From positions 1 to 52,377 of IMG/VR virus record IMGVR_UViG_3300024239_000355: a DNA stretch of 52,377 nucleotides; one strand, given 5' to 3'. The notes beneath the pieces were generated by a model. That model was not told where the DNA came from and ran no database searches. It saw nothing but the letters and a program-made list of their open reading frames with translations. Positions 6,674 through 46,854 of this stretch are shown piece by piece. The position numbers and the translations under genes were made by a program. This stretch comes from a virus. The stretch's first letter is position 1; the number at the start of each line of letters is the position of its first letter.

Positions 6674-7491
6674 GAATACGTGAAATCCTCAAAGAGTTGG
6701 CCGCCCATCCACGGGGTGCATCCAAATTCCAGAGCAAGGGATTTACATTCTACATCAGCCATCGGGTAGAAGGTGGGATGGTGCAATGTTCTGCATATGT
6801 CGCCGCACGACATCCGTTCGAACCCATCCGCGAGAAAGTGGCGGTGGTAAGTGCGTCAATCATTGATCGAACTGATACTGACCGGCGTAACAACATCCGG
6901 GTCGTGAGTTCCAAGAGTGTTGTGGACGCACCGTACCGGCGTATGGGTTTGCTCAATGCCATGTATGACCATTTGACCAATCATGGTTACGTCGTCTATC
7001 CAGCAGACCGGAGTATCGGGAACGATAGCGACAAGGTGCTTCAAGCACAGTCGGACGACGCAAAGGCATTCTGGGCAGCCCGTGATAAACGCACGACCGA
7101 AACGCGCCTGACCCCGGTCACGTCCGATGCTGAACTATACGGCTGGCGCGAATTCAACCCGTTCTCCGACGCCGATGAAGTATTGGGGATGCCAGTTATT
7201 GCCAAGCGCAAAGCCCCCGGATACCAGAACTCGATGCTCGTTCTCTGGTCCAAGACCTTTACGCAAGGCGAACAGGCGGTCGGCGTCATCTATGGCGAAC
7301 GGGGGTATCGCGTCGCAGTGTTTGTGTCCGATCCTCGCATAGGGGAAGAGGTTGATTTACCATACATTCGTGATGGGCACGTCAAATACTACTACCAATG
7401 GTTTGCGAGCAAGGTGAAGGCGTCCACAACGAAGATCGCCCTCGACCTTGACCAAAAACTCCGCAACGCCGAAATCGAAGCTAAAAGTTAA
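6670..7491 (+). CDS. MRIREIL-leader protein with GNAT-like domain
   Basis: VDAPYRRMGLLNAMYD acetyl-CoA-binding motif and QSDDAKAFW. Confidence 0.65.
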   Translation: MRIREILKELAAHPRGASKFQSKGFTFYISHRVEGGMVQCSAYVAARHPFEPIREKVAVVSASIIDRTDTDRRNNIRVVSSKSVVDAPYRRMGLLNAMYDHLTNHGYVVYPADRSIGNDSDKVLQAQSDDAKAFWAARDKRTTETRLTPVTSDAELYGWREFNPFSDADEVLGMPVIAKRKAPGYQNSMLVLWSKTFTQGEQAVGVIYGERGYRVAVFVSDPRIGEEVDLPYIRDGHVKYYYQWFASKVKASTTKIALDLDQKLRNAEIEAKS

Positions 7492-11571: not shown

Positions 11572-12678
11572 CTACACGGAGGTTGAAGTCAAATCGTCGC
11601 CATTTGGTATCAGAATTGGTTCGAACTGCGTAACGTTCATATAGTCACCGGGTGCCGAAATCCGGAAGTTGGTGGTTGGGTTTCCGCATTTACTGCACTT
11701 GGTTGGGTCACGCCCTGGTGGAACGTTGCCTTCAAGGACATGGACGGTTTCGCAGTTGTTGCACGTGACAAGGCGGGGTTTGTGGGGATGGGGAACCTCA
11801 CCGACCGTCCGCTCGAACAGTCGAGTTGCGACATCCATTAGATGATCGCGCCATGCCAACTGTTCGATCCATTCAGTCGGGATACTGGACAGACCATAAA
11901 GTGATCCGGCGATTTGACCAGCAACCGCCGCCACGGTATCCGCATCAACCCCAAGATTGGCAGCAAGCAGCACCGCATCTTTGAAATTATCTGTCTGTCC
12001 TACCGCCCACTGTGCCGCTTCCAGTGTATGCACAACGAAACCAGTGGAATGAATATCGTCGCGTGACTTGGAAACAATTTCCATCGGGCACTGATAGCCC
12101 TTGCCCTGAATGTTGTTCACTATAATGTCAGACAGCGTGGTGACGGCAGTTAGAACCAGATTAGAGGCATGTGTAGTACGGCTGTGTTCGATGGACTTTG
12201 CACGTGCCATCTCGATATCGTCATGGAAGAAAATCGGTACGGGGGCAAGGCGCATGATCGAACCATTTCCGGATTCCTCTGGTTCGGTGCTTCCTGCGAG
12301 GGGGTTGCCGAAGAAGGGATTCCATGGGACATCGTTGCTGTATCGTTGTAATGCCCGCTTGACGGTAGCGCCCAGCCCAATTCCAATATTGGTATGGGTG
12401 TAATTGGCATTCCGTATCCAATCGACAAAGCGATCCATGATATCACGAGGATCAACGTCGCCTTTCGCCAGCACGCTATGGGCTAGTGCCAAAGCCATTG
12501 CCGTGTCATCGGTCCAATCGCCTGCCCGGAGCCTAAAATAACCGCCAGCACGCATGCCGGTCACCGGTTCGAACGTATCTCGCTTCAAGAATTCGACTGG
12601 GGCGCCGATTGCATCGCCCACAGCCAATCCGATGAAAGCGCCGAGTGCTTTATCCTTCATTTGCGTCCTCGCTGCCAT
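11572..12678 (-). CDS. ADP-ribosylglycohydrolase (DraG/ARH family) with C-terminal CxxC ribbon
   Basis: GLAVGDAIG, WTDDT, GNGSIMR and DADT motifs. Confidence 0.9.
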   Translation of the reverse strand: MAARTQMKDKALGAFIGLAVGDAIGAPVEFLKRDTFEPVTGMRAGGYFRLRAGDWTDDTAMALALAHSVLAKGDVDPRDIMDRFVDWIRNANYTHTNIGIGLGATVKRALQRYSNDVPWNPFFGNPLAGSTEPEESGNGSIMRLAPVPIFFHDDIEMARAKSIEHSRTTHASNLVLTAVTTLSDIIVNNIQGKGYQCPMEIVSKSRDDIHSTGFVVHTLEAAQWAVGQTDNFKDAVLLAANLGVDADTVAAVAGQIAGSLYGLSSIPTEWIEQLAWRDHLMDVATRLFERTVGEVPHPHKPRLVTCNNCETVHVLEGNVPPGRDPTKCSKCGNPTTNFRISAPGDYMNVTQFEPILIPNGDDLTSTSV

Positions 12679-12766
12679 GCTTCAATGATGAAACGTCGGG
12701 TGATGGTGAGAGAGTAATAATCTTTAATGGTTGGTCGTTTGATACCCGCTAAACGGCGTAATTCAT

Positions 12767-13231
12767 TTAATCTTCCCATTTTTCATCCAGTTCTTCCGAA
12801 TATTCATTGGACGCAACCAGTGGACCGCCATATTCCGGAAGATCATCTATCTTGAAATCAATGGACGAATAACTGAGCGTGATGTGGGGTTGGTATTCAT
12901 CCCAGTCCCATGATGCATTATAAGCACCCATCAGTTCTTGGTGGTGCTGCACGAGATCAGGAGAAACGAGTAACATCACCAATACATTCTTGTCTTCTCC
13001 AAACAAGTCAAACCCAGAAAATTTAATATCCCAATCAGGAATATTATTACCCAATGGTTCAAAATCAAAAACTGGTTTGCGTGAATAGAGAACCGTGGTG
13101 TGTATATCATCCCGACCAACCGGGTTGGGGATTTTGTTGTCGTTGATAAATTTCAGAATCGCATCAACGGTGGCATCGTTATACCGAACCCCGCAGAATA
13201 AACCCTTTTCAATTTCGGTTACTTTCATCAA
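12767..13231 (-). CDS. Acb1/T4 gp57B-like 2H phosphodiesterase
   Basis: IHTTVLYSRK and DWDEYQPHITLSY motifs. Confidence 0.8.
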   Translation of the reverse strand: MMKVTEIEKGLFCGVRYNDATVDAILKFINDNKIPNPVGRDDIHTTVLYSRKPVFDFEPLGNNIPDWDIKFSGFDLFGEDKNVLVMLLVSPDLVQHHQELMGAYNASWDWDEYQPHITLSYSSIDFKIDDLPEYGGPLVASNEYSEELDEKWED

Positions 13232-23466: not shown

Positions 23467-24191
23467 ATGACAGTAGTAATCTCTTGTGCAATTTGTGGGT
23501 CAGAACACAAATCGTTTGTGTCGTTGGTCAAACATCTTAAATTTCAGCAAAATTATCCGACTGCGCTGCTCAACAATGGGCAGACCGAGAAACAAACGGT
23601 GAAAAACAACGCATCATAGAGAAAACGACTGAAACAAATCGCCAGCTTATAGCCGCTATGACCGAGCAAGAACGCAAAGACCGATTTGGTTGGATGAACA
23701 AATTATCTACAGAAGAAAAACAAGAAAAAATAAAAATGCTTTTGGATAGAGGACTTGGTAAATGGAAACCAAAATCAGACGAAGAAAAACATCAAATATA
23801 CCAGAGAATTAGGAATAAAATGGTTACAAATGGTATTTGGTTGGACCGTGAACAACTGAATATGTCCGACTGGTATGATTATTCAAATATGGTGCGAAAA
23901 TTAACTGACGCCACATATAGAAAACACAAGCAACAGATTAACCCCAATAATTTACCTCGCCGACGAGGGTACTATCATGTGGATCATATTTTCAGTATAT
24001 ATGATGGGTTCATTCATGAAGTGCCAATAGAAGTAATGGCGGCTCCGGTTAATCTTCAAATGTTAACCGAAACCTCTAATAGTTCAAAAAATAACAAAAG
24101 TTGGTGTACGGTAAACGAGCTATATCAACGCTACAATGAATGGTCGGGCGTGGGAGGATCGAACTCCGTTCCTGTTCAGGAAGTAGCTTGA
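23467..24191 (+). pseudogene. HNH homing-endonuclease-like gene, apparently frameshifted near 23540
   Basis: N-terminal CAIC..H finger out of frame with the downstream YHVDHIFS...NLQML..NSSKNNK domain; AT-rich. Confidence 0.55.
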
Positions 24192-24226
24192 GAGGCTACC
24201 GACCGCACCAGCAGTCTTCACGCCCG
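24141..24226 (-). tRNA. tRNA with Glu anticodon CTC, 8/4 fold, long variable arm
   Basis: CGGGCGTG/CACGCCCG acceptor, loop CTCTCAA, T-stem GGAG/CTCC, encoded CCA. Confidence 0.8.
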
Positions 24227-24231
24227 ATAGA

Positions 24232-24315
24232 TGGTCCGAGGTGGGGGAATCGAACCCCGAGCCTTGCGGCGGCAGATTGAAGGTCTACTGATCATCCCAG
24301 TAATCTTCACCTCGG
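24232..24315 (-). tRNA. tRNA with Glu anticodon TTC, 8/4 fold, variable arm
   Basis: CCGAGGTG/CACCTCGG acceptor, loop CCTTCAA, T-stem GGGG/CCCC, CCA. Confidence 0.8.
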
Positions 24316-24320
24316 TAAAT

Positions 24321-24402
24321 TGGCAGCGCATGGGGGAATCGAACCCCAGGATGATCCACTCGGGTGAAAACCGAGCCGCCGTACCCAGCAGCATCATGCG
24401 CT
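24321..24402 (-). tRNA. tRNA with Glu anticodon TTC, 8/4 fold
   Basis: AGCGCATG/CATGCGCT acceptor, loop TTTTCAC, CCA. Confidence 0.8.
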
Positions 24403-24403
24403 A

Positions 24404-24478
24404 TGGTCCCCCGTATCGGATTCGAACCGATGTCCCTGGATCGAGAATCCAAGTGTCCTTCCCATAGACGAACGGGGG
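24404..24478 (-). tRNA. tRNA-Glu(CTC)
   Basis: 7/5 cloverleaf, loop TTCTCGA, TTCGAAT T-loop, CCA. Confidence 0.85.
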
Positions 24479-24489
24479 ATAACCGTAAA

Positions 24490-24617
24490 TAAGACCTAAG
24501 AAAAAACCTCCATGTTTACCTTTTTGGTCTTAACCTTCAATAAGAAGCCCAACCCGAGCTTCTTATTGAAGGTTATGTCCCTATCCTTTAACAAGCGACG
24601 CGCCAATTAAAGGATAG
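24490..24617. repeat. three consecutive inverted repeats in the tRNA spacer
   Basis: Includes a perfect 18-bp stem TAACCTTCAATAAGAAGC (24531-24575) and an 11-bp stem (24581-24617). Confidence 0.85.
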
Positions 24618-24698
24618 TGGTCCCCCGTGTGGGGGTCGCACCCACCTGAACCTCTCGTTGAAAGCGAGATGATCACACTAACCGCAATCCCACGGGGG
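24618..24698 (-). tRNA. tRNA-Glu(TTC), atypical D and T loops
   Basis: Loop CTTTCAA, T-loop TGCGACC, CCA. Confidence 0.8.
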
Positions 24699-24707
24699 AT
24701 ATTTTAT

Positions 24708-24782
24708 TGGTGACTCCGAGGAATTCTGCCATCCCATTGCCCGCTTGAAAGGCGAGTGTCCTTACTTTTAGACGACGGAGCC
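24708..24782 (-). tRNA. tRNA-Glu(TTC), atypical T arm
   Basis: GGCTCCG acceptor, TCGTCT..GGAC D arm, loop CTTTCAA, CCA. Confidence 0.8.
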
Positions 24783-24819
24783 ATAAAAACTTCAAACGTT
24801 ACTTGCACCTCAACCCATT

Positions 24820-24894
24820 AAAAAAGCCGCTTAGATCGATCTCTCTAAGCGGCTGCCGTTCACGCTGGACCTGATACCAGCATGTTGAGCAGCC
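24820..24894 (-). promoter_or_regulatory. attenuator: overlapping antiterminator and terminator
   Basis: GGCTGC..CATGCTGG/CCAGCGTG..GCAGCC hairpin overlaps the terminator AGCCGCTTAGA/TCTAAGCGGCT-TTTTT. Confidence 0.75.
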
Positions 24895-24927
24895 TTAACT
24901 TTCTTCTTCCACCACGAACACGAACAT
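24895..24927 (-). CDS. Glu leader peptide MFVFVVEEES
   Basis: AAGGA Shine-Dalgarno 8 nt upstream; GAA GAA GAA AGT TAA. Confidence 0.7.
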   Translation of the reverse strand: MFVFVVEEES

Positions 24928-25041
24928 CTTACTCATCCTTCTGCTGTGCTACCTTGTAGCACGATCATGCTATTTTCTAGTAAGGTCACCATGACCTTAC
25001 CAGTTTTAGGTAAGAGCTTACCAGAAAATGGTAAAGCTCCG

Positions 25042-25317
25042 ACCGGGTGTCCTAGACCGCTAGACGACCGCCAGGGAGTTGTTAACTTTACCCCGGCAGG
25101 CAAGGATTCGAACCTTGCGTTTCCCAGTTCTGGCGGGCTAATCAAGCCCGAAAAACTCCGGTGTCCTAAGCCTCTAGACGATCAACGGGCGATCAACTCC
25201 GCTGAGTGGGATTCGAACCCACGTTCCCCGGTTCTTGAGGGCACGTCTTGTGCATCGACCTTCCCGCTCGGTAACGATCCGCCTCGGTAGGGGAGTCGAA
25301 CCCCATCCCCGCACAAG
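25042..25317 (-). ncRNA. three circularly permuted tRNA-like modules (YrlA-like topology)
   Basis: T arm, then closed acceptor hairpin, then D arm at 25247-25317, 25156-25232 and 25042-25128. Confidence 0.65.
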
Positions 25318-25357
25318 CCACTCACCTTTCGTGGCGCCGAAGCGCCGTGCCCAACTC

Positions 25358-25921
25358 TTACACCAAGTCAGCCCGATGGCTCTCGATGTATTCTCTCACC
25401 ACCGAAGGAAGTGCCACGTCCCGAGTAGTTCCGTCCGGTTCCCCGCAGCATTCACAACAATGGTTCAACTCAGTGGTGATCCCGGTTTTGACAAATATTT
25501 CATCACCAACCTGAACCATCTTCTCATAATCGACAAGACTATTCACCGAAACCATAAACGGCACTGCCGTTTTTTTCCCACTCGGGGCAGTGATCAGCAC
25601 GTTCTTCTTGCCGACACGCCAGCCCCAAACTTCCTTACCAATGGTCAGGTTGCGCTCGCCTTTGGCTTTCTTCCGAACCAGTCGTTCGCGATTGGCGCAC
25701 ACATACTGGACCAGATGCTCCTTGGATAATTGCCAAGTAGCAAGCAGTCCGCATGCCTCGACAATATCCCATTCCTGCACAACCTGTTCTTTACCATCCA
25801 CTGGTGAGATGAAGATTACGTATTGTCTTCCCCAATTCACCCGCTTGCGGCGGTACTTCCACGTCTCCCCCTCCACGACGATTTCATAAATGGGGTTCAT
25901 CACTACTTTCTGTTTACCCAT
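25358..25921 (-). CDS. hypothetical protein inside the tRNA-Glu operon
   Basis: 187 aa with a CCECC motif, immediately downstream of a tRNA-Glu. Confidence 0.7.
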   Translation of the reverse strand: MGKQKVVMNPIYEIVVEGETWKYRRKRVNWGRQYVIFISPVDGKEQVVQEWDIVEACGLLATWQLSKEHLVQYVCANRERLVRKKAKGERNLTIGKEVWGWRVGKKNVLITAPSGKKTAVPFMVSVNSLVDYEKMVQVGDEIFVKTGITTELNHCCECCGEPDGTTRDVALPSVVREYIESHRADLV

Positions 25922-25948
25922 GATACTAGCCTTGCTCTGGGCTTGTTT

Positions 25949-26025
25949 TGGTGTCCCCAACGGGTGACGATCCCGTTTTTTCGCCTTGAAAGGGCGATGT
26001 TCTAACCAACGTAAACTATGGGGAC
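25949..26025 (-). tRNA. tRNA-Glu(TTC)
   Basis: GTCCCCA/TGGGGAC acceptor, loop CTTTCAA, T-loop ATCGTCA, CCA. Confidence 0.85.
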
Positions 26026-26106
26026 AAAAACAAAACCGCCTCACATTCGCGGGCGGTTCCAACTCTGCCATCAGGGCAAAATTAAAGCCGCCCTTGATGA
26101 GGCGGC
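26026..26106 (-). terminator. tandem terminators between leader peptide and tRNA-Glu
   Basis: GCCGCC..GGCGGC-TTTAATTTT and AACCGCC..GGCGGTT-TTGTTTTT. Confidence 0.7.
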
Positions 26107-26131
26107 TCGGCAAGCAGACATGCTCAACGAA

Positions 26132-26185
26132 TCACCCCATCGGGTTGCGTTCTTCCTCGCGTTCGCGTTCGAGCATGACAATCAT
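26132..26185 (-). CDS. Glu leader peptide MIVMLEREREEERNPMG
   Basis: AGAGGA Shine-Dalgarno; 5 Glu codons in 7 positions; TATAAATA at 26253-26260. Confidence 0.7.
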   Translation of the reverse strand: MIVMLEREREEERNPMG

Positions 26186-26413
26186 GGTACTAAATCCTCT
26201 GGTTCTTGCCGCTTAACGGCGTGTCTCGTTTGTGCCGACGTATCGACAAACCTATTTATACAAACAACGCTTTTTGGCGTCAAATTCTTTTTATGGTGGG
26301 TCGGGCGTTCTGCCCGACCAAGCCGCGTTGTGGTGGTATTTATACAAGCTGGTTCGTGGATGTCAACTAGAAATTTCTTAGATAACGAAAAGGCGGGTTT
26401 CCCCGCCTTTTTG

Positions 26414-27235
26414 TTACGCCGGTTGTTTCTGCGCCAGATCACGAATTACGGAGAAGTTCACCTGATAGCCGGGAATACGATAGTAACCTTCACCCAGGCA
26501 CCCGTGGTATACTTCGGTCAGGAAACGGGGCGGCATCTGGGCGACGATCCCGGTCAGGGTATCCTTATCAAGACCAAGAAGGTACTTGATGGGGCGCACG
26601 ATCACATGATGTCCGTCCTCACGAACCATCCGCAAATAATCGTCCGGTGACTTGATAGCGGCGAAATTCAGTGCCGCTTCGACATCAGGCGAATTGCCGT
26701 AATAGTTGGCGAAGTAGAGGAAGAACGCATCATTTTGCATACGTTCTTTTTCCAGAATCTCCACCAGTTTGTCTTCGTGGGTGCCGGTGATTCGCACATC
26801 ATCGATGAAGATCAACAATTTACCTTTCAAGAACTGCTTGTTCATGAAGAAGCGGTCATTGTCGATCAGACCCTTGCGTTTTTCCTTGGACAGGAACCCA
26901 TAGTCATTGGTGTATGACACCTTGCGATGGATGATCGTATATTCGACGTGACCACCGTTTGCCAGCACGAGGTGTTCATTCAGGCGATTGACGAAATGCT
27001 TCGTCATAATGGTCGCGGCGTTCTCGACATGATTGTACGGTGACGGGATCACCACACATTGATTTGCCAGCAGTACGTCGGTATGTGCGGCGAAGAAGGC
27101 ATCGGCAAGCTGATACCCGAACTTGCGGGCAATCACATCTGACCCGAATTTGAGCGCCGAATAGTCCGCAGGGCTGAAAGCTGCGTCTTCGAGGTCGTAG
27201 AAACCGTTGACGTAAAACCGAGAATGCGCACCCAT
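26414..27235 (-). CDS. phosphoribosyltransferase-fold protein (Ter-cluster type)
   Basis: LLIFIDDVRITGTHE PRPP-binding loop. Confidence 0.8.
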   Translation of the reverse strand: MGAHSRFYVNGFYDLEDAAFSPADYSALKFGSDVIARKFGYQLADAFFAAHTDVLLANQCVVIPSPYNHVENAATIMTKHFVNRLNEHLVLANGGHVEYTIIHRKVSYTNDYGFLSKEKRKGLIDNDRFFMNKQFLKGKLLIFIDDVRITGTHEDKLVEILEKERMQNDAFFLYFANYYGNSPDVEAALNFAAIKSPDDYLRMVREDGHHVIVRPIKYLLGLDKDTLTGIVAQMPPRFLTEVYHGCLGEGYYRIPGYQVNFSVIRDLAQKQPA

Positions 27236-27408
27236 TATTGTTTCCCTTTGTCAGTTTTTGTCGGCAAAACACACTCTTTTTCGGCGAAGCATACCCAGAA
27301 TTTACAATGTTCATCCAGGGTGATGTGACGATCATCGAGCGCACAACGCAAAGATAAACTTCGACGGCAATGATCACAATTCGAACATTCTTGGATGCCG
27401 TAATGCAT
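27235..27408 (-). CDS. small Cys-rich protein (57 aa, not in the ORF track)
   Basis: MHYGIQECSNCDHCRR..., TAATG-coupled on both sides. Confidence 0.55.
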   Translation of the reverse strand: MHYGIQECSNCDHCRRSLSLRCALDDRHITLDEHCKFWVCFAEKECVLPTKTDKGKQ

Positions 27409-28070
27409 TACAGAACCCCTTCAATTGCTGATGCGAGTTGTTGTGGTCCCTTAATAATGATGTGTGCCATCAAATCTTTTGGGTCGTCGCACACGGGGTT
27501 GTCACCGATGTGGGTGATGGGATCGGGGCGTGGAACTGCCGTATGATACTGGTTTTGTACCATTTGAAAGAACTTGGGGTTTGGTTTGGCACAGCCGTGA
27601 AGGTCGGAAAACACATAAAACAAGAAATCCAAGCCTAACGACGACAGATGTTTCGCGAGGATTGGTCCAGTGATGAAATTGGTGTTGCTGGCGATACTAA
27701 ACGTATGCCCAGCCGCTTGGGCAGCCTTGATTACACGAATGGCATCAGCAAGGACGGTCGGCGGCATTTCACGGAATTTCTGCTCGAAAGCAGGGCGCAT
27801 TCCTGTGAGCATGTATGTCACGTGCGGGAACGGAATATGTAGTTGTTTGGAGTATTCAGCCACCAACATGACGTATACTTCATCGGTGCGATATGAAATG
27901 CCTTTTTCTTCGGCATCATTGTCCACACAGGTTTTGACCGAAGTGTAAATTTTCTTGGCGCGTGATGAATCAATGTCGAGACGTTCGGCTAAGAAATTTG
28001 TCCGCCATTTGGCATATTCGGGATTGGGAATGAAGAGGGTGTTCCAAATGTCCAGGGAGATATGTGCCAT
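27408..28070 (-). CDS. HAD-superfamily hydrolase
   Basis: SLDIWNTL, ASN, AKPNP and HIGDN motifs. Confidence 0.85.
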   Translation of the reverse strand: MAHISLDIWNTLFIPNPEYAKWRTNFLAERLDIDSSRAKKIYTSVKTCVDNDAEEKGISYRTDEVYVMLVAEYSKQLHIPFPHVTYMLTGMRPAFEQKFREMPPTVLADAIRVIKAAQAAGHTFSIASNTNFITGPILAKHLSSLGLDFLFYVFSDLHGCAKPNPKFFQMVQNQYHTAVPRPDPITHIGDNPVCDDPKDLMAHIIIKGPQQLASAIEGVL

Positions 28071-28199
28071 AATGCGTCCCGCCATGTATCGAATCGTTAT
28101 GTATCGTATACCCTTCAATCAGTCAAGTCATTTACTCGGTATGGGTGTATGAAATAGAAAAAGCCCGCCGTTTGGCGGGCTTTTCCTTGTTTGGTCTGA

Positions 28200-28664
28200 T
28201 TAGTTCAGAGCCGGGATCGAACTTGCCATGACGCCGAGAACGTTGGCGATCTGACGCGCCACGCGCTTTTCGCCGTCATCGAACTTGCCGTCCGCGCCGC
28301 CAATCACACAGGCGAGCAAAACGCAAGCTCGGGACTGCTCATCGTTCTTTCCGCTGATCGCCTTGATCCAGTTCCAGGCTTTCTCGGCGCCCATGGTGGC
28401 ATCGAAATCGAATTCTTCCGCCAGTTCATTAAAGGTGTTCAGCACCTTGGTGCGGGGGAACGCCTTCAAGGCGTCATTACGCTCGCAGAAGCCGAGCAGT
28501 TTCTTCTTTTCGTCGGCATCAACGTTGCCATCCGCCGATGAAATCAGGTACGCGGAGGCGATAGCCGCCTTCAGGAAATCGTCATTGACGAAACGGCTGA
28601 CCGAAGCGGTCAGGTCATTGACGGCGGCGCCCAACATGTCACCAATCTTACCGAACAGACCCAT
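28200..28664 (-). CDS. TerB-family protein
   Basis: SADGNVDADEK and GADGKFDDGEK repeats. Confidence 0.85.
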   Translation of the reverse strand: MGLFGKIGDMLGAAVNDLTASVSRFVNDDFLKAAIASAYLISSADGNVDADEKKKLLGFCERNDALKAFPRTKVLNTFNELAEEFDFDATMGAEKAWNWIKAISGKNDEQSRACVLLACVIGGADGKFDDGEKRVARQIANVLGVMASSIPALN

Positions 28665-28722
28665 TTGTTTAACTCCTAACGACAAAACTCATGGGGATGG
28701 ATATATCGGTATAGATTCTATG

Positions 28723-29331
28723 TCAAAGATTCGTTTGCGCCATCAGGGTATATTCCTTCCGAATAATCGGTGGGATGTATGCATTCAGCTTGGGGTGTTC
28801 GAGTATTTTCCGTTCGACCGGGCTATTTGGAAATTCACGACAAATTTCCGCCAACGTTTCAATTGCCTTCGGAGACATAATAATGCTAACAAGGTATTTT
28901 GAAAGATTTTTAACCCCGCCCGGAATGAATTCTTCTGCTTCAGCGAGGGCGGAATATTTATGACGGTACCCATCGGTTCGTTCAACCGAATGAAAATATT
29001 CGTATGGGTAAATCTTGTAGTGGTTTTGAAGCTTATTCCGATCTAGAACGATTATTGCTTTGCGTTTATGAAACGGCTGTTCATCACTGGTTTCAATATA
29101 GTCCCAGGTTAGTGCAAATATTGGATTGCGCGTGGTACTTACGCCCCATAATTGCTTATCTTCACAATCGGATGGTTTTTTGAACCCGACACTATTTACC
29201 GGGACATCTTGTTTTAGGAGTATTGATGTGCGTGGGGTGAGTTCATCCCCACATAGAATATTCATCAGCCGTTGAACGGTTGTTGCGTGATAAAGATGGG
29301 GCTTGGGGATGGTTAATTCGTAGATGAGCAT
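28723..29331 (-). CDS. ART-like late protein with MLIYEL leader
   Basis: LYHATT, VSTTRN and EAEE; TAAATA 4 nt upstream. Confidence 0.65.
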   Translation of the reverse strand: MLIYELTIPKPHLYHATTVQRLMNILCGDELTPRTSILLKQDVPVNSVGFKKPSDCEDKQLWGVSTTRNPIFALTWDYIETSDEQPFHKRKAIIVLDRNKLQNHYKIYPYEYFHSVERTDGYRHKYSALAEAEEFIPGGVKNLSKYLVSIIMSPKAIETLAEICREFPNSPVERKILEHPKLNAYIPPIIRKEYTLMAQTNL

Positions 29332-29373
29332 GATGTATTTATGAAGAAAGCCCGCCAATTGGCGGGCTTTCTC

Positions 29374-29652
29374 CTAGAGCTTAACCAGAACGATTTCGAC
29401 CAAAATGGTTTCGCGAAGCTCTTTGGTAAGGGCAACACGCTCTTCCTCGATGTGCGGGAACGCCTCGATCACTTCCGCCCATTCAGTGGTGTTGGCGGCA
29501 AACGCCAACTTGGCCGCTGATTTGGCGAACGTGATGAATTCGTCAGTCTTGGCAGCGAAGTCGGTTTGTGAAAGTACCGTTACCACGGCAGCACCCTTGT
29601 TCTGGGTAGTCGAATCTGAATGAATATATGTCTCAATGCGACCAGTGCGCAT
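29374..29652 (-). CDS. mini EF-Ts-like protein
   Basis: GRIETYIH...SQTDFAAKTDEF resembles the EF-Ts core ETDFVA motif; AGGAG Shine-Dalgarno. Confidence 0.7.
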   Translation of the reverse strand: MRTGRIETYIHSDSTTQNKGAAVVTVLSQTDFAAKTDEFITFAKSAAKLAFAANTTEWAEVIEAFPHIEEERVALTKELRETILVEIVLVKL

Positions 29653-29667
29653 GTTCTCTCTCCTATT

Positions 29668-29735
29668 TGGGGTACTGGGTAGTCACGAACCACCGTCTCG
29701 CTTGCGCGTGTCCTTCTCTGTTTGACGACAGCACC
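29668..29735 (-). ncRNA. anticodon-less tRNA-like RNA
   Basis: GGTGCTG/CAGTACC acceptor, TCGTC..GGAC D arm, CGC-GCAA-GCG in place of the anticodon arm, GGTGG-TTCGTGA-CTACC T arm, then CCA. Confidence 0.65.
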
Positions 29736-29737
29736 GG

Positions 29738-30571
29738 TTAAAATTTCATGTCCTCAATTGCCATGACCCATTTGGCGACATCGCAAGCATAGAAACCTGC
29801 GGAATTGATGCAGTTGATCTCGATGACCTTGGGTCCAAGATCGGTCAACGCGATGTCCAGGCAGAACGCCCGATCCGGCGACCACGTATCGACCATCTTC
29901 TGTGCATACGCCCAGATGTCCGGGTCGATGTTGGTGTCATGGATCACCCGATCCCCCAATTTGTACTGGGAGCCGGTGACGATCACACCATCCACCACAA
30001 AGAACCGGTACTCCCGATAGATATCCTTCAACGAAGATGCCATTACCATAGTGTCGGGAGTGACCGTAGCGAAACACGCCTGTTCACCCAAGACCACTAC
30101 GTTATGTTGCCAGTCGGCAAACTCTGTCTTGTCCATCACGCGACCGCTGAAGCTCTTGGTGTCCTCGCATGGGCGAATGAAGAACGCCTCCCAGGACGGC
30201 TTCATGTCGGTATACCGGCACACCACCGAGTCCGGGTTCAGCAGATTGTCACCGTAATGCTCCAACCAGCTTTCATACCGGAAATCAGCGTTCGAGAAAG
30301 CACCAGGGGTCCAACCCCGAGCCTTGGCCGCTTTGATCATCGTGGTCGCTCCACAGACCATGACGTGACCGCTCTCATCGATCACGGCATCAGGGGCAAG
30401 CATGATGTCCTTGTCTTTCCAGGCGAACGTATCGAAGTCGCCCGGAAGCAGCTTGCTCGTTGTCGGGACGACCTTGACAAAGGTGTGGGGGATGTCGAAC
30501 CGCTCCAACGTGTTGCAGAGCGCCGTATAGCCGTATTCCGAATACAAATCTTTTTGGACAACCCAGAACAT
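29738..30571 (-). CDS. ATP-grasp domain protein (R2K/DUF4343-like)
   Basis: FFIRPCEDTKSFSG, EYRFFVVDG and KVIEINCINSAGFY motifs. Confidence 0.8.
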   Translation of the reverse strand: MFWVVQKDLYSEYGYTALCNTLERFDIPHTFVKVVPTTSKLLPGDFDTFAWKDKDIMLAPDAVIDESGHVMVCGATTMIKAAKARGWTPGAFSNADFRYESWLEHYGDNLLNPDSVVCRYTDMKPSWEAFFIRPCEDTKSFSGRVMDKTEFADWQHNVVVLGEQACFATVTPDTMVMASSLKDIYREYRFFVVDGVIVTGSQYKLGDRVIHDTNIDPDIWAYAQKMVDTWSPDRAFCLDIALTDLGPKVIEINCINSAGFYACDVAKWVMAIEDMKF

Positions 30572-30683
30572 TATCTTATCCAGTCTAGCTGGATAAATAG
30601 ATGTGGTAATTGGGATGCGCCAACATCCCAAAACCCGCTCGGTGAACCGGGCTGTCCCACGTGTCTATTTATCGGTGAAAACT

Positions 30684-30782
30684 ATGAACTACCAGCATGT
30701 TTATGACGTTTTGATTCTGCGCGCCATCAACCGCCAGAAGCCCAGTGGGTATACAGAACGACATCATATTCTCCCTGAATAC
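30684..30782 (+). pseudogene. HNH endonuclease N-terminal remnant
   Basis: MNYQHVYDVLILRA...GYTERHHILP, after which similarity ends. Confidence 0.55.
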
Positions 30783-31030
30783 CGGCGCCCAACGACGGCA
30801 CGGGCTTGTTTGTGCATCAAGCCCGTCAAACGCCGGGTTAGCGCGCGTTCTTCTTCGGTAAGCATCCGTACCGGGGCTTCCGTTTGATTCTCGGCAGAAA
30901 GCTGTTGCAGCTTTTCTTCGATAGCCTTCATTTCCGCCTTGTCAGCGTCCGTAAAGTTCACGGTTTGTTCTCCCCGTGCTACCGCCCGCATTTCGGCTTC
31001 AAGATCACCCAGTGTACGTTTCATCATCAA
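30764..31030 (-). CDS. hypothetical coiled-coil protein
   Basis: GAGG Shine-Dalgarno. Confidence 0.55.
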   Translation of the reverse strand: MMMKRTLGDLEAEMRAVARGEQTVNFTDADKAEMKAIEEKLQQLSAENQTEAPVRMLTEEERALTRRLTGLMHKQARAVVGRRYSGRI

Positions 31031-31074
31031 ACCTCAGGAAGTGACCCGGAGATTAACGTCTCCGGGTCCATTTC

Positions 31075-31692
31075 TTACTCAGCGAACTCTTCCCACTTGT
31101 TCCCGAAAACCTGTTTCAATTTATCGAGATAGGCGCGGGTCTTGACCTTCGCCATCCAAAGCTGGTGTCCAGCACCACCCTTGGCAATCACACCTTCAGC
31201 GCCTTCAGGAACGAATTCGCCGTTTCGCACTCGCTCGATGAACTCTTTGTTGAAGTTGCCCTCGTAGACAACTTCCGCAGCGAATTCAAGATCACCGAAG
31301 TGATCAAGGAACTCTTTCGGTCCCAGGAACCCTTTTCGATGTAGCTGAACATCGAACACTCGGAGTTCCTTGGTTTCGCCCTCGACGTGAGTTCCGGCGA
31401 ACGAGGATGGTCCGAAAAACTCTGCGAACACCGTGGCTTGTTCGAGTTGTCGGAAGTCGTCCCGCAGTACCTTTTCAAGAGGCTCTGCATATTTGGACAT
31501 GAACAACGGGATTGCTTCACCCAGTTGATCATCCGACGCATCAATCAAACGAGTGCGACTTCCGAACTTGTGAAAGCCGCGCTTTTTGGTCCATTCGAAG
31601 CGCAGATTGGAACCATCATACTTGTGGAAAGCTACACATGGCTTTCCGAGCGGAGCGCGAGCCGCGCCCACGATACTTGGATACGATTTCAT
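31075..31692 (-). CDS. RNA-ligase-like nucleotidyltransferase
   Basis: HKYDGSN, FAEFFG, VFDV, EGVIAK and KVK motifs. Confidence 0.8.
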   Translation of the reverse strand: MKSYPSIVGAARAPLGKPCVAFHKYDGSNLRFEWTKKRGFHKFGSRTRLIDASDDQLGEAIPLFMSKYAEPLEKVLRDDFRQLEQATVFAEFFGPSSFAGTHVEGETKELRVFDVQLHRKGFLGPKEFLDHFGDLEFAAEVVYEGNFNKEFIERVRNGEFVPEGAEGVIAKGGAGHQLWMAKVKTRAYLDKLKQVFGNKWEEFAE

Positions 31693-31807
31693 TGTTTACC
31701 TTCTTTCGCATTTGGTTATTGGTCTTTGCGAAAGTACACACAATGATGACCATGGTAAGTCCCCCTAACGTTTAATGGATCGACCTAACTAAGCCGCGTC
31801 CGTATAA

Positions 31808-31884
31808 TGGTGCGCCTGACGGAATTCGAATCCGTGATCTTCGCCGTGACAGGGCGACGGGGACAGCCTCTCCCCTACAAGCGC
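31808..31884 (-). tRNA. tRNA-Asp(GTC)
   Basis: Cloverleaf, loop CTGTCAC, CCA. Confidence 0.85.
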
Positions 31885-31889
31885 ATAAT

Positions 31890-31967
31890 TGGCGACCCAT
31901 GTCGGTTTCGAACCGACCTGATTATTCGGGAGACAACCGAATGACCACCCAAGCAGTCCCATGGGCC
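31890..31967 (-). tRNA. tRNA-Asp(GTC) with T37
   Basis: Cloverleaf, loop TTGTCTC, GCCA. Confidence 0.85.
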
Positions 31968-32126
31968 ATCTTGCCGATCTTTGACCGACAAATTTACTAA
32001 CAAATACAACAACCTACGTCCCGTCTGCGTCGTGATCTTACCGATCTTATTACCGATCACGACACAGGTACATTCCTCTTTATTATCAACAGCTTATCAG
32101 TATTTTCTCTGATTAACTGCCGATGT

Positions 32127-32234
32127 TGGCGGTTCCGGCAAGGATTCGAACCTGCGATCTCCACCTGACGCGGTGGCGGGGACGACCAAGTGTTTTGTTC
32201 GGCGCCGAACTCACACCAACTCCCCTACGGAACC
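32127..32234 (-). tRNA. aberrant tRNA-Asp(GTC) with a hairpin inserted in the D loop
   Basis: GGTTCCG/CGGAACC acceptor, 6-nt loop GCGTCA, about 30-nt D-loop insert, GCCA. Confidence 0.65.
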
Positions 32235-32260
32235 TAACCCATTGATATACAAGGGAAAAT

Positions 32261-32340
32261 TGGCGACTCGTAGGGAATTCGAATCCCTCTGAATATCCGG
32301 AGTGACAATCCGGCGACCACACCTAGCAGTCCCACGAGCC
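32261..32340 (-). tRNA. tRNA-Asp(GTC)
   Basis: Cloverleaf, loop TTGTCAC, GCCA. Confidence 0.85.
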
Positions 32341-32514
32341 ATATTTCCAAAAACAAACTCAACAACCACCGTTTCAATGACTACGCTTTTACTCTTCCTC
32401 GAAACCATCGTCAACAAAAATTTTCAATTAAACCAAATATTTCTTCGAAGCTCTTCAACTTATACTTTAACAATACTTCTCCGTTACTGACTTCAAGTCA
32501 GACACGCAGGCAAT

Positions 32515-32590
32515 AAAAAAAGGTCGCTTCCATTTGGAGCGACCTTTATCCCAGAAACCGGGCAATAAAAAAGTCGCTCGGTGGCGACCT
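32515..32590 (-). terminator. tandem duplicated terminators upstream of the tRNA-Asp array
   Basis: AGGTCGC..GCGAC(C/T)-T-tract-ATTGCC twice. Confidence 0.8.
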
Positions 32591-32615
32591 TCTTACGACT
32601 ACGTGCGCAAGTTGA

Positions 32616-32675
32616 TCACCACGAGGTGGTATCCTCGTTGGTATCTCGGTCAGCGGTGTAAGCGCGCATGGTCAT
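32616..32675 (-). CDS. leader peptide MTMRAYTADRDTNEDTTSW
   Basis: AAGGA Shine-Dalgarno; 3 Asp and 5 Thr codons; TATAAATA at 32743-32750. Confidence 0.6.
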   Translation of the reverse strand: MTMRAYTADRDTNEDTTSW

Positions 32676-32770
32676 AACTTCATTCCTTCATTGTTGGGCG
32701 AGCCTGGGTAACAAACGGGTCCAGCAGCCATCGCCACAATCCTATTTATACAGAGAGCGCAAAAACGGTG

Positions 32771-33070
32771 TCAAATAGAATTTTTCAGTTGCGATTCGTG
32801 CATTGCCGACTGCTCACACCAAAACCGTTCGTTAGAACCTACCGTTCGGATAAATGGGTGAAATGCAACCATGGCATCAAACGGATATGTGGGAAGCAAC
32901 TTATGCCGTTCGTTTTCATTAACCAGAACGATCCAATTATCCATTACGCCATATGACGCAACCCCGACAATACATCCCCGAACGATGTTGTTTGGATCAC
33001 CTCCCATTGCAACTTCAACTGCTTCTCCATTCTCGAAGACGGGTTTGCCGCTTTCAATTTTCATGATCAC
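32771..33070 (-). CDS. hypothetical protein
   Basis: AAGGA Shine-Dalgarno. Confidence 0.6.
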   Translation of the reverse strand: MIMKIESGKPVFENGEAVEVAMGGDPNNIVRGCIVGVASYGVMDNWIVLVNENERHKLLPTYPFDAMVAFHPFIRTVGSNERFWCEQSAMHESQLKNSI

Positions 33071-42130: not shown

Positions 42131-42829
42131 TTACACCCAGAGCGAATCCATATAACCGCGCATATATTGCTTCGCGGTCATCGTTTTCTCGGTGCCATGA
42201 TGAGTAACCCGGTTGTCTTGGAAACGGATCGTGACAGTTTTATCCCCACGCATTCCGCTCCCGACCTGTGCCTTTCTCTCTTCCGCTATTATGCCAGTGG
42301 TTTCACCACGGGCGGCATGATCTAGCGTCTTCAGGATGGCATCTTTAGCTTCCCGAAGATTAGCGTCACGATGTCTTCCTTGACGTGTCTCAACGATACC
42401 CGTTGGGACATGAATGACACGACACGAGCAAGCTTTTTTATTTCTGTGCTGTCCGCCAGCGCCGGTACCGGAGAACCATTCAACGCGGAAATCGCCTTCT
42501 TCGCGACGGAAGAAAGCGTTGTTGGATTGGACTTGGGGGTTAATGACGGCGACCGTGACCGTCGAGGTATGGACGCGCCCACGGCGTTCCGTTGGTGGAA
42601 TTCGTTGTATCCGTGTTCCACCGGCTTCTTGGTCTAATTTTTCGAGAGAGCGCCCTTCGACTTCGATGGCGATTTCATGATAACCCGCGTCACTGGGTCG
42701 TTCTCGAACGACGCGGTACTTTCAGCCAAAGCGGCTGAACAAACGGGTATAGGCGTCGGCAAGGTCTTTGACGAACATTTGAGCATCGGCACCACCTTCT
42801 GCCGACTTCACTTCGATAACTCGGAGCAT
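42131..42829 (-). CDS. class I peptide release factor (RF1-like, lacking domain 1) with in-frame TGA at 42722-42724
   Basis: AEGGADA, RIPPTERRGRVHTSTVTVAV, GTGAGGQHRNK and QVGSGMRGDK all in one frame across the TGA; GGAG Shine-Dalgarno. Confidence 0.85.
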
Positions 42830-45825: not shown

Positions 45826-46854
45826 GTGATGCGTAACCAGTTCAGGGGTTGCCTTATTGGGACAGCATTAGGGGATGCAGTCGGGTTCATGGTTGAAAAA
45901 CAAATGCCCGAAACGTGTGCGAATTATATTACCGACTGGTATTTGACTGGGAAACTTTCACAGCGTACACGCACTCATGGGTCTGGGGAAAGTCGTATAA
46001 CCTATTCTTTTGGTAGTTACTCGGATGACACCCAGCTTTCGCGTGAACTCATGTTCAGCATGACCGAACACAAGGGCTGGAACCCGGAAGATTACGCTCA
46101 ACGCATCGCTGTCATGTTCAAGGACAACAAGATCGTCGGCGCAGGCAAATCCACCCGTGAGGCGGCAGACCGGCTGAATGCGGGTGTAGTGTGGTCGGAT
46201 GCTGGCGCGGTTGCCCCGGCTGCCGGTAACGGCACTGCGATGCGTGCGGCTCCCATTGGGCTGTTCTATCGCAATGACCACAAGACGCTGATCCGCGTTG
46301 CCAAAGAACAGTCGATCATCACCCACTCCGACCCCCGATGCCAGAGTGGGTCGGTGCTGATCGCCCTGGCGGCGGCGCTCTGTGTCCTCCCCGAGACGGA
46401 ATGGATCAATGATTCTGGGGTGTTTCTGGACACCCTCATGTTGATCGCGGGCGAAAACGACGCCCTGGACCCCGACACCTATCAAGGGCTGCTGGTCCTT
46501 GATGATGTGCGCACGAAGTCGTTTAACGAAGCGGTGGTCGCCATTGCAGGGCTGGATAAGGAACGGGATGTCCAGGCGTGGAAATGGATTTCGCCCTATG
46601 TGACCACGACCGTCATGTGGTCGTTGTGGTGCTTCCTGAACCACATGGACAATTACGAAGCTGCCATGACCGCCGCTGTCATCTGTGGGGGTGATGTAGA
46701 CACAACTGCTAGTATTGTTGGGGGGCTTGTTGGGACTCGTCTTGGATTGGAAGCAATTCCAACTCGGTATCTCCCATTGATCAATGACAACGGCAAGTGT
46801 CGTTATGACGATCTCATTCGTATTGCCGATGATTTTTTCGACGCTTCGCTATGA
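45826..46854 (+). CDS. ADP-ribosylglycohydrolase
   Basis: GTALGDAVG, YSDDT, GNGTAMR and GGDVDT motifs. Confidence 0.9.
   Translation: MMRNQFRGCLIGTALGDAVGFMVEKQMPETCANYITDWYLTGKLSQRTRTHGSGESRITYSFGSYSDDTQLSRELMFSMTEHKGWNPEDYAQRIAVMFKDNKIVGAGKSTREAADRLNAGVVWSDAGAVAPAAGNGTAMRAAPIGLFYRNDHKTLIRVAKEQSIITHSDPRCQSGSVLIALAAALCVLPETEWINDSGVFLDTLMLIAGENDALDPDTYQGLLVLDDVRTKSFNEAVVAIAGLDKERDVQAWKWISPYVTTTVMWSLWCFLNHMDNYEAAMTAAVICGGDVDTTASIVGGLVGTRLGLEAIPTRYLPLINDNGKCRYDDLIRIADDFFDASL

Follow-up and report, generated by a model that had tools for sequence, protein, structure and literature searches.

The stretch of viral DNA considered here (hereafter the window) comprises 52,377 nucleotides (nt), the first 52 kb of the 195,192-base virus record IMGVR_UViG_3300024239_000355, and contains three short leader open reading frames (ORFs), termed L1, L2 and L3, which stand ahead of transfer RNA (tRNA) genes for Glu, Glu and Asp, respectively. 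We consider it likely that these leaders are three ribosome-dependent attenuators gating tRNAs that read the leaders' own control codons, and the leader set is real and probably functional. Leaders led by a Shine–Dalgarno (SD) sequence, terminators and single-amino-acid arrays are present, and in other phages the codons of such leaders match the anticodons of their arrays in frame.

Architecture of the three leader units

The original prediction, made from this DNA alone, described three units in which an SD sequence, a leader ORF with cognate codons and one or more terminators precede tRNA genes for that amino acid only (Glu, Glu and Asp). This arrangement is confirmed, all of it on the (−) strand, to which the coordinates in this section refer unless otherwise marked. 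The anatomy expected of the attenuator class, an SD-led ORF with cognate codons followed by a terminator with a U tract, can be read in the sequence of all three leaders.

Unit 1 begins with tandem promoter-like sites (26253..26366), TTGACA-16-TATAAATA at 26366-26337 and TTGACG-17-TATAAATA at 26283-26253, in which we take TATAAATA to be the T4 late-promoter consensus and assume a sigma-70 consensus label for the TTGACA-type part. The leader L1 (26132..26185, MIVMLEREREEERNPMG, SD AGAGGA) has 17 codons, and Glu occupies 5 of the 16 that follow Met (four GAA and one GAG; binomial p=0.001). Its first terminator, T1 (hairpin 26106-26087), lies with its U tract 25 nt past the leader stop and, with the antiterminator predicted by folding, spans 26078..26145; a second predicted terminator, T2 (hairpin about 26056-26036), lies at 26027..26058. 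Downstream are a tRNA-Glu(TTC) whose acceptor and D stems look canonical (25949..26025), a gene for a 187-amino-acid protein of no known family with two distant relatives (41–43% identical; 25358..25921) and three or four broken tRNA-like RNAs (25040..25366), among which three T-arms and two Glu/Asp-type D-arms are present and a clear anticodon and CCA end are absent.

The leader of unit 2, L2 (24895..24927, MFVFVVEEES, SD AAGGA), is ten codons long and carries three GAA codons (binomial p=0.01). Its predicted antiterminator and terminator (hairpin 24853-24826) occupy 24819..24894, the hairpin and U tract lying 41 nt past the leader stop. No promoter of its own was found for L2, which may therefore act in series behind L1, gating the transcript of unit 1 a second time. 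Six tRNA-Glu genes follow (24141..24782), with TTC at 24782, TTC at 24698, CTC at 24478, TTC at 24402, TTC at 24315 and CTC at 24226; all six end in CCA and four have atypical D arms or long variable regions. Pairwise identity among the seven tRNA-Glu genes is 46–67%. In contigs from the same study, which are not independent samples, the tRNA-Glu(CTC) at 24404-24478 is skipped or moved (window 24401-24847), and small indels at 24832-24836, 32521 and 32572 fall in or at terminators. An endonuclease-like ORF (23658-24191, (+) strand) converges on and overlaps the last tRNA-Glu; it has an HNH-like motif by eye and weak PHROG matches to families without a function, and is reminiscent of T4 segB beside its tRNA cluster. 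Long near-perfect hairpin runs, to which we assign no role, lie between tRNA genes at 24490-24617, 24950-25050 and 31965-32125.

Unit 3 starts with a promoter-like site (32743..32774) made up of TTGACA, 18 nt and TATAAATA. Its leader, L3 (32616..32675, MTMRAYTADRDTNEDTTSW, SD AAGGA), has 19 codons, with Asp at positions 9, 11 and 15. The antiterminator, in which the leader end is predicted to pair with the 5' arm of the terminator, and T1 (32588-32573) with its U tract lie within 32566..32625, the T1 hairpin and U tract being 27 nt past the leader stop; a second predicted terminator, T2 (hairpin 32544-32522), lies at 32514..32547. The array consists of a tRNA-Asp(GTC) at 32261..32340 and two further tRNA-Asp(GTC) genes (31967-31890 and 31884-31808, together 31808..31967), all found by ARAGORN, and between them an atypical tRNA-Asp-like gene read by eye (32127..32234), which has a D-arm insertion of about 30 nt, GTC in a 6-nt loop and a CCA end, and which ARAGORN calls Pro when introns are allowed. 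The four Asp-type genes are 47–70% identical in pairs. A CCA end is shared by all Glu and Asp-type tRNA genes of the window, several of which show altered D arms or long variable regions.

An RNA ligase gene (31075..31692; Pfam PF09414, E=1.5e-8; phrog_548) starts 116 nt past the last tRNA-Asp, and no terminator was seen between them, so that the ligase plausibly lies under the Asp switch. It had been proposed that the switches also control repair genes; of these, the ligase directly behind the Asp array is the only candidate.

The proposal also noted a promoter context shared by two of the units, and TATAAATAGG(T/A)TTGT is indeed present at 26260 and 32750. The TATAAATA element, however, has 15 copies across the 195 kb record, most of them in front of genes other than the tRNA units, and this promoter is not specific to the three leader units.

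Predicted folding switch

A ribosome was placed at each codon, and the part of the nascent RNA that it leaves unoccupied was folded, with 12 nt masked past the A site; with a mask of 9 or 15 nt instead, the antitermination window moves by one codon. For L3 the probability of T1 is 1.0 without a ribosome and 0.98–0.99 with a ribosome at the stop codon, and it falls to 0.10 or below only at codons D9–D15, remaining at 0.78 or above elsewhere. For L1 the probability of the terminator is 0.01, 0.01, 0.59 and 0.10 at E6, E8, E10 and E11, and 1.0 both at the stop codon and when the leader is untranslated, in which case a 1:2 helix with the leader is predicted to form. The L2 antiterminator overlaps the terminator base by 3–4 nt and captures that base only. 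When leader and spacer were shuffled with dinucleotides preserved, the observed difference between stalling and reaching the stop was attained in 0, 0 and 3 of 200 shuffles for the three leaders. An antiterminator that excludes the terminator and is free at the control codons is thus predicted clearly for L3 and L1 and partially for L2.

The specificity of this behaviour can be gauged from the rest of the 195 kb record, in which 111 terminator-like sites yield 8 with an SD-led short ORF just upstream. Three of these 8 are the tRNA leaders, all of which switch in folding, and one of the other five, antisense inside the CysRS gene, dips comparably.

In the read-through RNA of L1 and L3 the 5' arm of T2 pairs with the 3' arm of T1 before T2 is complete. 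The action of T2 as a kinetic back-up is our guess from these folds.

Leaders and arrays in other phages

If the leaders of the window sense the codons that their arrays read, other tRNA clusters should show the same correspondence, as had been predicted. The comparison drew on 160 loci that surround RNA ligase relatives, 7 from named phages and the window (168 sequences with 505 tRNA clusters). A rule blind to the amino acid required a terminator-like hairpin no more than 220 nt from the first tRNA and took as the leader the longest free-standing ORF of 7–40 codons starting with ATG before that hairpin; 68 of the 505 clusters passed, representing 58 distinct candidates in 45 families. The prediction held in this other phage DNA: across the 42 families outside the window, enrichment of the array's own amino acids in the leader sums to 38.6 against a null of −3.3 ± 7.1 (permutation p<=5e-5), in the reading frame only, the controls giving p=0.72 for frame +1, p=0.44 for frame +2 and p=0.80 for the reverse strand. 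Taking a single family from each locus leaves the result intact (p<=5e-5 across 35 loci), and permutation within loci (12 loci, window included) gives p=8e-4.

The amino-acid sets matched between leader and array are Pro, Ser, Glu/Tyr, Phe/His/Trp/Lys and Arg/Ser. Pro-only arrays are preceded by Pro-rich leaders, Ser arrays by MIAISISSLSSSSSSRG leaders and Glu arrays by MNTFLEQLEHMEHQIH leaders, and a Tyr/Glu array (locus L153) by a leader that includes YEGYYYEEE. Four different leaders, each matching its own mixed array, occur in a single 642 kb phage (LR756502.1, locus L004), at 6991, 9378, 22978 and 23616, with arrays for Phe/His/Trp/Lys, Arg/Ser, Glu/Tyr and Ile/Gly; here a mixed leader, MRTINKHKHFSKLNKWF, stands ahead of a mixed Phe/His/Phe/Trp/Lys array.

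Cognate codons are also concentrated ahead of the switch boundary: in 18 families, 102 of the 316 codons up to that boundary are cognate, against 8 of the 147 beyond it. A kinetic proxy asked whether the 5' arm of the terminator is already paired upstream before its 3' arm has been made and is released when the ribosome reaches the stop; at a threshold of 0.7 this was so for 24 of 30 leaders and for 1 of 26 ordinary gene ends. Among the variants of the Pro leader, 12 of which were aligned and one near-duplicate excluded, the antiterminator folds in all 11 although the inner-helix sequences differ; the outer helix of the family is nearly invariant, so that it gives no covariation evidence.

Further cognate leaders, mostly missed by the blind rule, were seen by eye at loci L032, L060, L063, L106, L136, L055 and L158, and include a Glu family (MTMFLEHLERMERQVH), Pro variants and short ORFs right behind TTGACA/TATAAT-type promoters. 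The last of these have a weak SD or none and are possibly leaderless. In the cultured Xanthomonas phage X1 (OQ427096.1), a 39-codon ORF that uses 19 of the 20 amino acids (1705-1824) and is followed by a terminator heads the tRNA region, with a weak folding switch.

Evidence that counts against attenuation

A number of results weigh against the attenuation of tRNA arrays by cognate leaders, or against its generality. In the window, E12 of L1 lies outside the antitermination window (terminator probability 0.91), and L2 is weak at equilibrium, its terminator retaining probabilities of 0.62, 0.54 and 1.0 at E7, E8 and E9, and 1.0 at the stop codon. The helix that joins T1 and T2 forms whatever the position of the ribosome, and T2 can therefore act only as a kinetic back-up. 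In L3 there are more Thr codons (five) than Asp codons (three), and the number of Asp codons by itself lacks significance (binomial p=0.10). This weak count is offset by position, since the predicted antitermination window holds all three Asp codons and one of the five Thr codons; Thr was rejected as the L3 signal as the other four Thr codons lie outside that window. The claim of codon-sensing attenuators gating cognate arrays is well supported computationally, with the predicted switch on cognate codons and the codon–anticodon match holding at other clusters. A candidate internal promoter read by eye near 32413 (TTGACG-17-TAAAAG) could bypass L3. Homologs of L1, L2 and L3, and with them covariation support, were not found by single-protein scans of viral contigs, an alignment scan, a tRNA-Glu pattern or blastn on cultured phages, the last of which matched only tRNA pieces.

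In other phages, the blind rule was fixed after a first sight of the cluster and leader data. The enrichment weakens when the best families are dropped (p=0.002 without the top 5, p=0.048 without the top 8 and p=0.20 without the top 10); the signal is carried by about 8–10 families, and many of the candidates are therefore noise. Two sets of loci collected later contain no leader candidates, with 0 of 28 clusters in 10 loci found by a tRNA-Asp pattern and 0 of 18 clusters in 80 ligase loci of genome contigs; these sets neither support nor refute the leader design, yet show that it is not universal. As for structure, the terminator is lost at equilibrium in only 9 of the 27 leaders outside the window, so that the remainder depend on the kinetic argument. 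The proxy for that argument covered 30 of the 58 candidates, three of them the window's own, the other 28 being without a qualifying hairpin and not folded, and with a looser threshold of 0.5 it accepts 27 of the 30 leaders and also 11 of the 26 gene ends. Finally, the G-rich antiterminator arm in part dictates the depletion of cognate codons past the switch boundary.

Comparison with known regulatory systems

Leaders such as thrL, ilvGMEDA and pheM-pheST are ribosome-mediated attenuators. We know of no bacterial leader with Glu or Asp control codons. Described members of the class include trpL and hisL, which attenuate transcription of amino-acid operons (PMC1183508), and the leader-peptide attenuators pheL and, in Sinorhizobium meliloti, trpL/rnTrpL. 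The leaders of the window resemble the trpL/hisL class in having an SD-led short ORF, control codons cognate to the output and mutually exclusive antiterminator and terminator, with predicted termination on fast translation and, for L1 and L3, also when untranslated. They differ in that their output is tRNA genes of a phage rather than enzymes, so that the loop would replace the sensor molecule itself, in their Glu and Asp control codons, in the use of one leader per array and in the tandem terminators of L1 and L3. The targets usual for the class, biosynthesis or synthetase genes, are not those found here, where tRNAs, an orphan protein and an RNA ligase lie downstream.

None of the Rfam leader families (Trp, His, Thr, Phe and Leu leaders and RcsR1) reaches its gathering threshold, the best match being RcsR1, the trp attenuator RNA of S. 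meliloti, with 31.7 bits against a threshold of 60 at 26029-26123. Nor was a T-box riboswitch matched up to E=5 in 23900-33000. In the T-box the choice between terminator and antiterminator is set by the charging state of one tRNA (PMC4695836), but unlike the phage leaders it binds uncharged tRNA directly and needs no ORF, and the available portion of that source contains nothing on T-box control of tRNA genes.

With regard to function, phage tRNAs are established replacements for host tRNAs cleaved by the PARIS and OLD defences (10.1101/2025.02.04.636281; 10.64898/2026.07.10.737580): T5 tRNAs act against the PARIS effector AriB and the Bas32 tRNA-Thr against OLD, and T4 Pnk/Rnl carry out repair. 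Divergent phage tRNA copies together with an RNA ligase could likewise replace or repair a cut tRNA in the window. The difference is that a codon-specific switch is predicted here, whereas sensing or regulation of the phage tRNA genes is not described in the available portions of those sources, and that those sources name Lys, Thr and Asn as targets, as against Glu and Asp in the window.

The nearest functional parallel is the trn operon of Anabaena, a tRNA array that is normally silent and is induced by translational stress (PMC8421152; TrcR, PMC10272220). It too is a back-up array, co-regulated with the RNA ligase gene rtcB and induced when translation fails; unlike the window, it is run by a repressor at promoter direct repeats and is not codon-specific, and neither 'attenuat' nor 'leader' occurs in the available main text of PMC8421152. 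Both words are likewise absent from the available portion of a 2026 review of jumbo phages, and full-text literature searches, outside whose scope most subscription papers fall, returned no report of attenuation of tRNA genes. The leader-gated tRNA array is a known mechanism with a new target and a new logic. It would extend leader-peptide attenuation from enzymes to tRNA genes, close a direct feedback loop and add leaders that sense Glu and Asp.

Proposed mechanism and possible purpose

In the mechanism that we propose, a ribosome slowed on Glu or Asp codons would free the antiterminator and allow polymerase to read into the cognate tRNA genes, and a ribosome that reaches the stop codon quickly would leave the terminator free to form and the array off. 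Read-through of the Asp leader would yield the tRNA-Asp genes and the RNA ligase, and that of the Glu leaders the tRNA-Glu genes; in units 1 and 3 the second terminator would probably be a back-up, itself put out of action after antitermination at the first. The signal would be a lack of functional charged tRNA and not of the amino acid itself, giving negative feedback on tRNA supply, because more tRNA cures the loss of tRNA and not that of an amino acid.

The likeliest trigger would then be tRNA cleavage by the host's defences, which a ligase and copies of diverse sequence would offset. A plain supplement should consist of uniform copies, and those found here differ from one another; a ligase stands behind the Asp array, and the contigs vary. 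We put forward an anti-defence purpose tentatively, at a little under even chances. The original prediction had further included synthetase-targeting toxins among the possible attackers; this part is weakened, as searches of the record, the completeness of which is estimated at 63%, found neither GluRS nor a class II Asp/Lys/Asn synthetase. Decoys were also part of that prediction, a role that the broken tRNA-like RNAs may have. In its fullest form, which we regard as plausible without favouring it, the idea is one of modular, re-programmable tRNA surveillance by large phages, in which each leader spells the codons of its own array, stalling reveals which tRNA a host defence has destroyed and only the matching resistant replacements, decoys and ligase are switched on.

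The same attenuator could instead work as a supply-and-demand thermostat, replenishing tRNA-Glu and tRNA-Asp when the host pool cannot keep pace with heavy late production of acidic virion proteins, unconnected with host defence. The mechanism is blind to the cause of a tRNA shortage, the promoters combine sigma-70-like and TATAAATA elements, and GAA and GAT are among the commonest codons of the record (3.8% and 3.9% of 50783 codons counted). Supply, however, needs one good tRNA copied and not seven Glu genes of such low mutual identity with altered arms or loops, nor does it account for the RNA ligase or for strains of the same study that appear to differ in array order, and we consider this explanation rather unlikely.

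Less probable still is that the leaders are general sensors of translation speed, responding to antibiotics, ribosome damage or uncoupling, with codon content of minor importance. In most leaders a stall at any early codon, cognate or not, would free the antiterminator, and any stall in L1 from I2 to R9 is predicted to antiterminate; against this, the codon match is in frame and array-specific, within single loci too, and the window of L3 is confined to D9–D15.

That the switch senses starvation for glutamate or aspartate, with the tRNA-like RNAs as decoys or signals and not replacements, would follow the known logic of amino-acid biosynthesis leaders (PMC1183508) and would suit the several genes with non-standard arms and the three or four that are broken. 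No biosynthetic gene was found behind any leader, an amino-acid shortage would not be cured by more tRNA, and the usual identity bases are retained in at least two of the Glu and two of the Asp genes; this reading is accordingly improbable in our judgement. Chance short ORFs beside ordinary terminators or processing hairpins, with the tRNAs made from internal promoters or by phage-driven antitermination, are strongly disfavoured and very improbable, for while short ORFs are common, 437 of the 505 clusters fail the blind rule and the Asp count of L3 is unremarkable, the frame-specific permutation result, the shuffle controls and the confinement of switches in this record to tRNA units all speak against them.

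The reason why phages encode tRNAs is an old question; such a switch would imply that the genes are an inducible remedy for the loss of a specific tRNA. If surveillance is their purpose, a catalogue of leaders would become a read-out of the tRNAs attacked by host immunity, and the tRNA-Glu and tRNA-Asp targets in the window would point to nucleases not yet characterised. The leaders would supply codon-specific sensors of tRNA depletion, useful in finding new tRNA-targeting defence systems, and the switch offers a simple reporter for the stress that triggers phage tRNA genes.

Genomic setting

The source virus appears to be a large T4-like phage. The tRNA genes found in the whole record all lie within 24141-32340 and are all Glu or Asp; searching the record against Rfam gave no tRNA beyond the window, and ARAGORN run at a low threshold with introns allowed gave mostly noise. 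A promoter scanner, whose rule excludes TATAAA, found no site on the minus strand. Of the runs, X5 and X6 cover little of the window and are uninformative on expression, and the lone RNA run is almost empty here.

Apart from the tRNA genes, the record contains a transfer-messenger RNA gene (G000:C1, 74083-74432, (−) strand; tag ANDNGEVVALAA) downstream of a TTGACA-17-TATAAATA site and, judged by eye, seemingly encodes a class I LysRS, LeuRS and EF-Tu. The window encodes TyrRS, CysRS, GroEL, an EF-Ts-like piece, two ADP-ribosylglycohydrolases and an Acb1-like protein; the ADP-ribosylglycohydrolases and the Acb1-like anti-CBASS protein (11572-13231 and 45826-46854) are further probable counter-defence genes. 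Between the tRNA units lies a block (26414-30631, (−) strand) with genes for PRTase_3, a HAD hydrolase, TerB, the EF-Ts-like piece of 92 amino acids and an R2K ATP-grasp protein. It was rejected as an unlikely part of the regulated set and is probably outside leader control, because its own terminator-like hairpins (28159-28184, 26413-26387 and about 29345-29370) cut it off.

The window also carries, behind a TATAAATA site, a release-factor gene (42131-42829, (−) strand; PCRF and RF-1 domains with a GGQ motif) that has an in-frame TGA at codon 36. In fetched loci, a TGA stands at the same place in the five closest relatives of this gene (48–52% identical) and is absent from six more distant relatives that cover the site. 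As read from the sequence, this TGA is possibly a read-through sensor of low RF2 activity, which would make it a second translation-feedback switch in the same phage.

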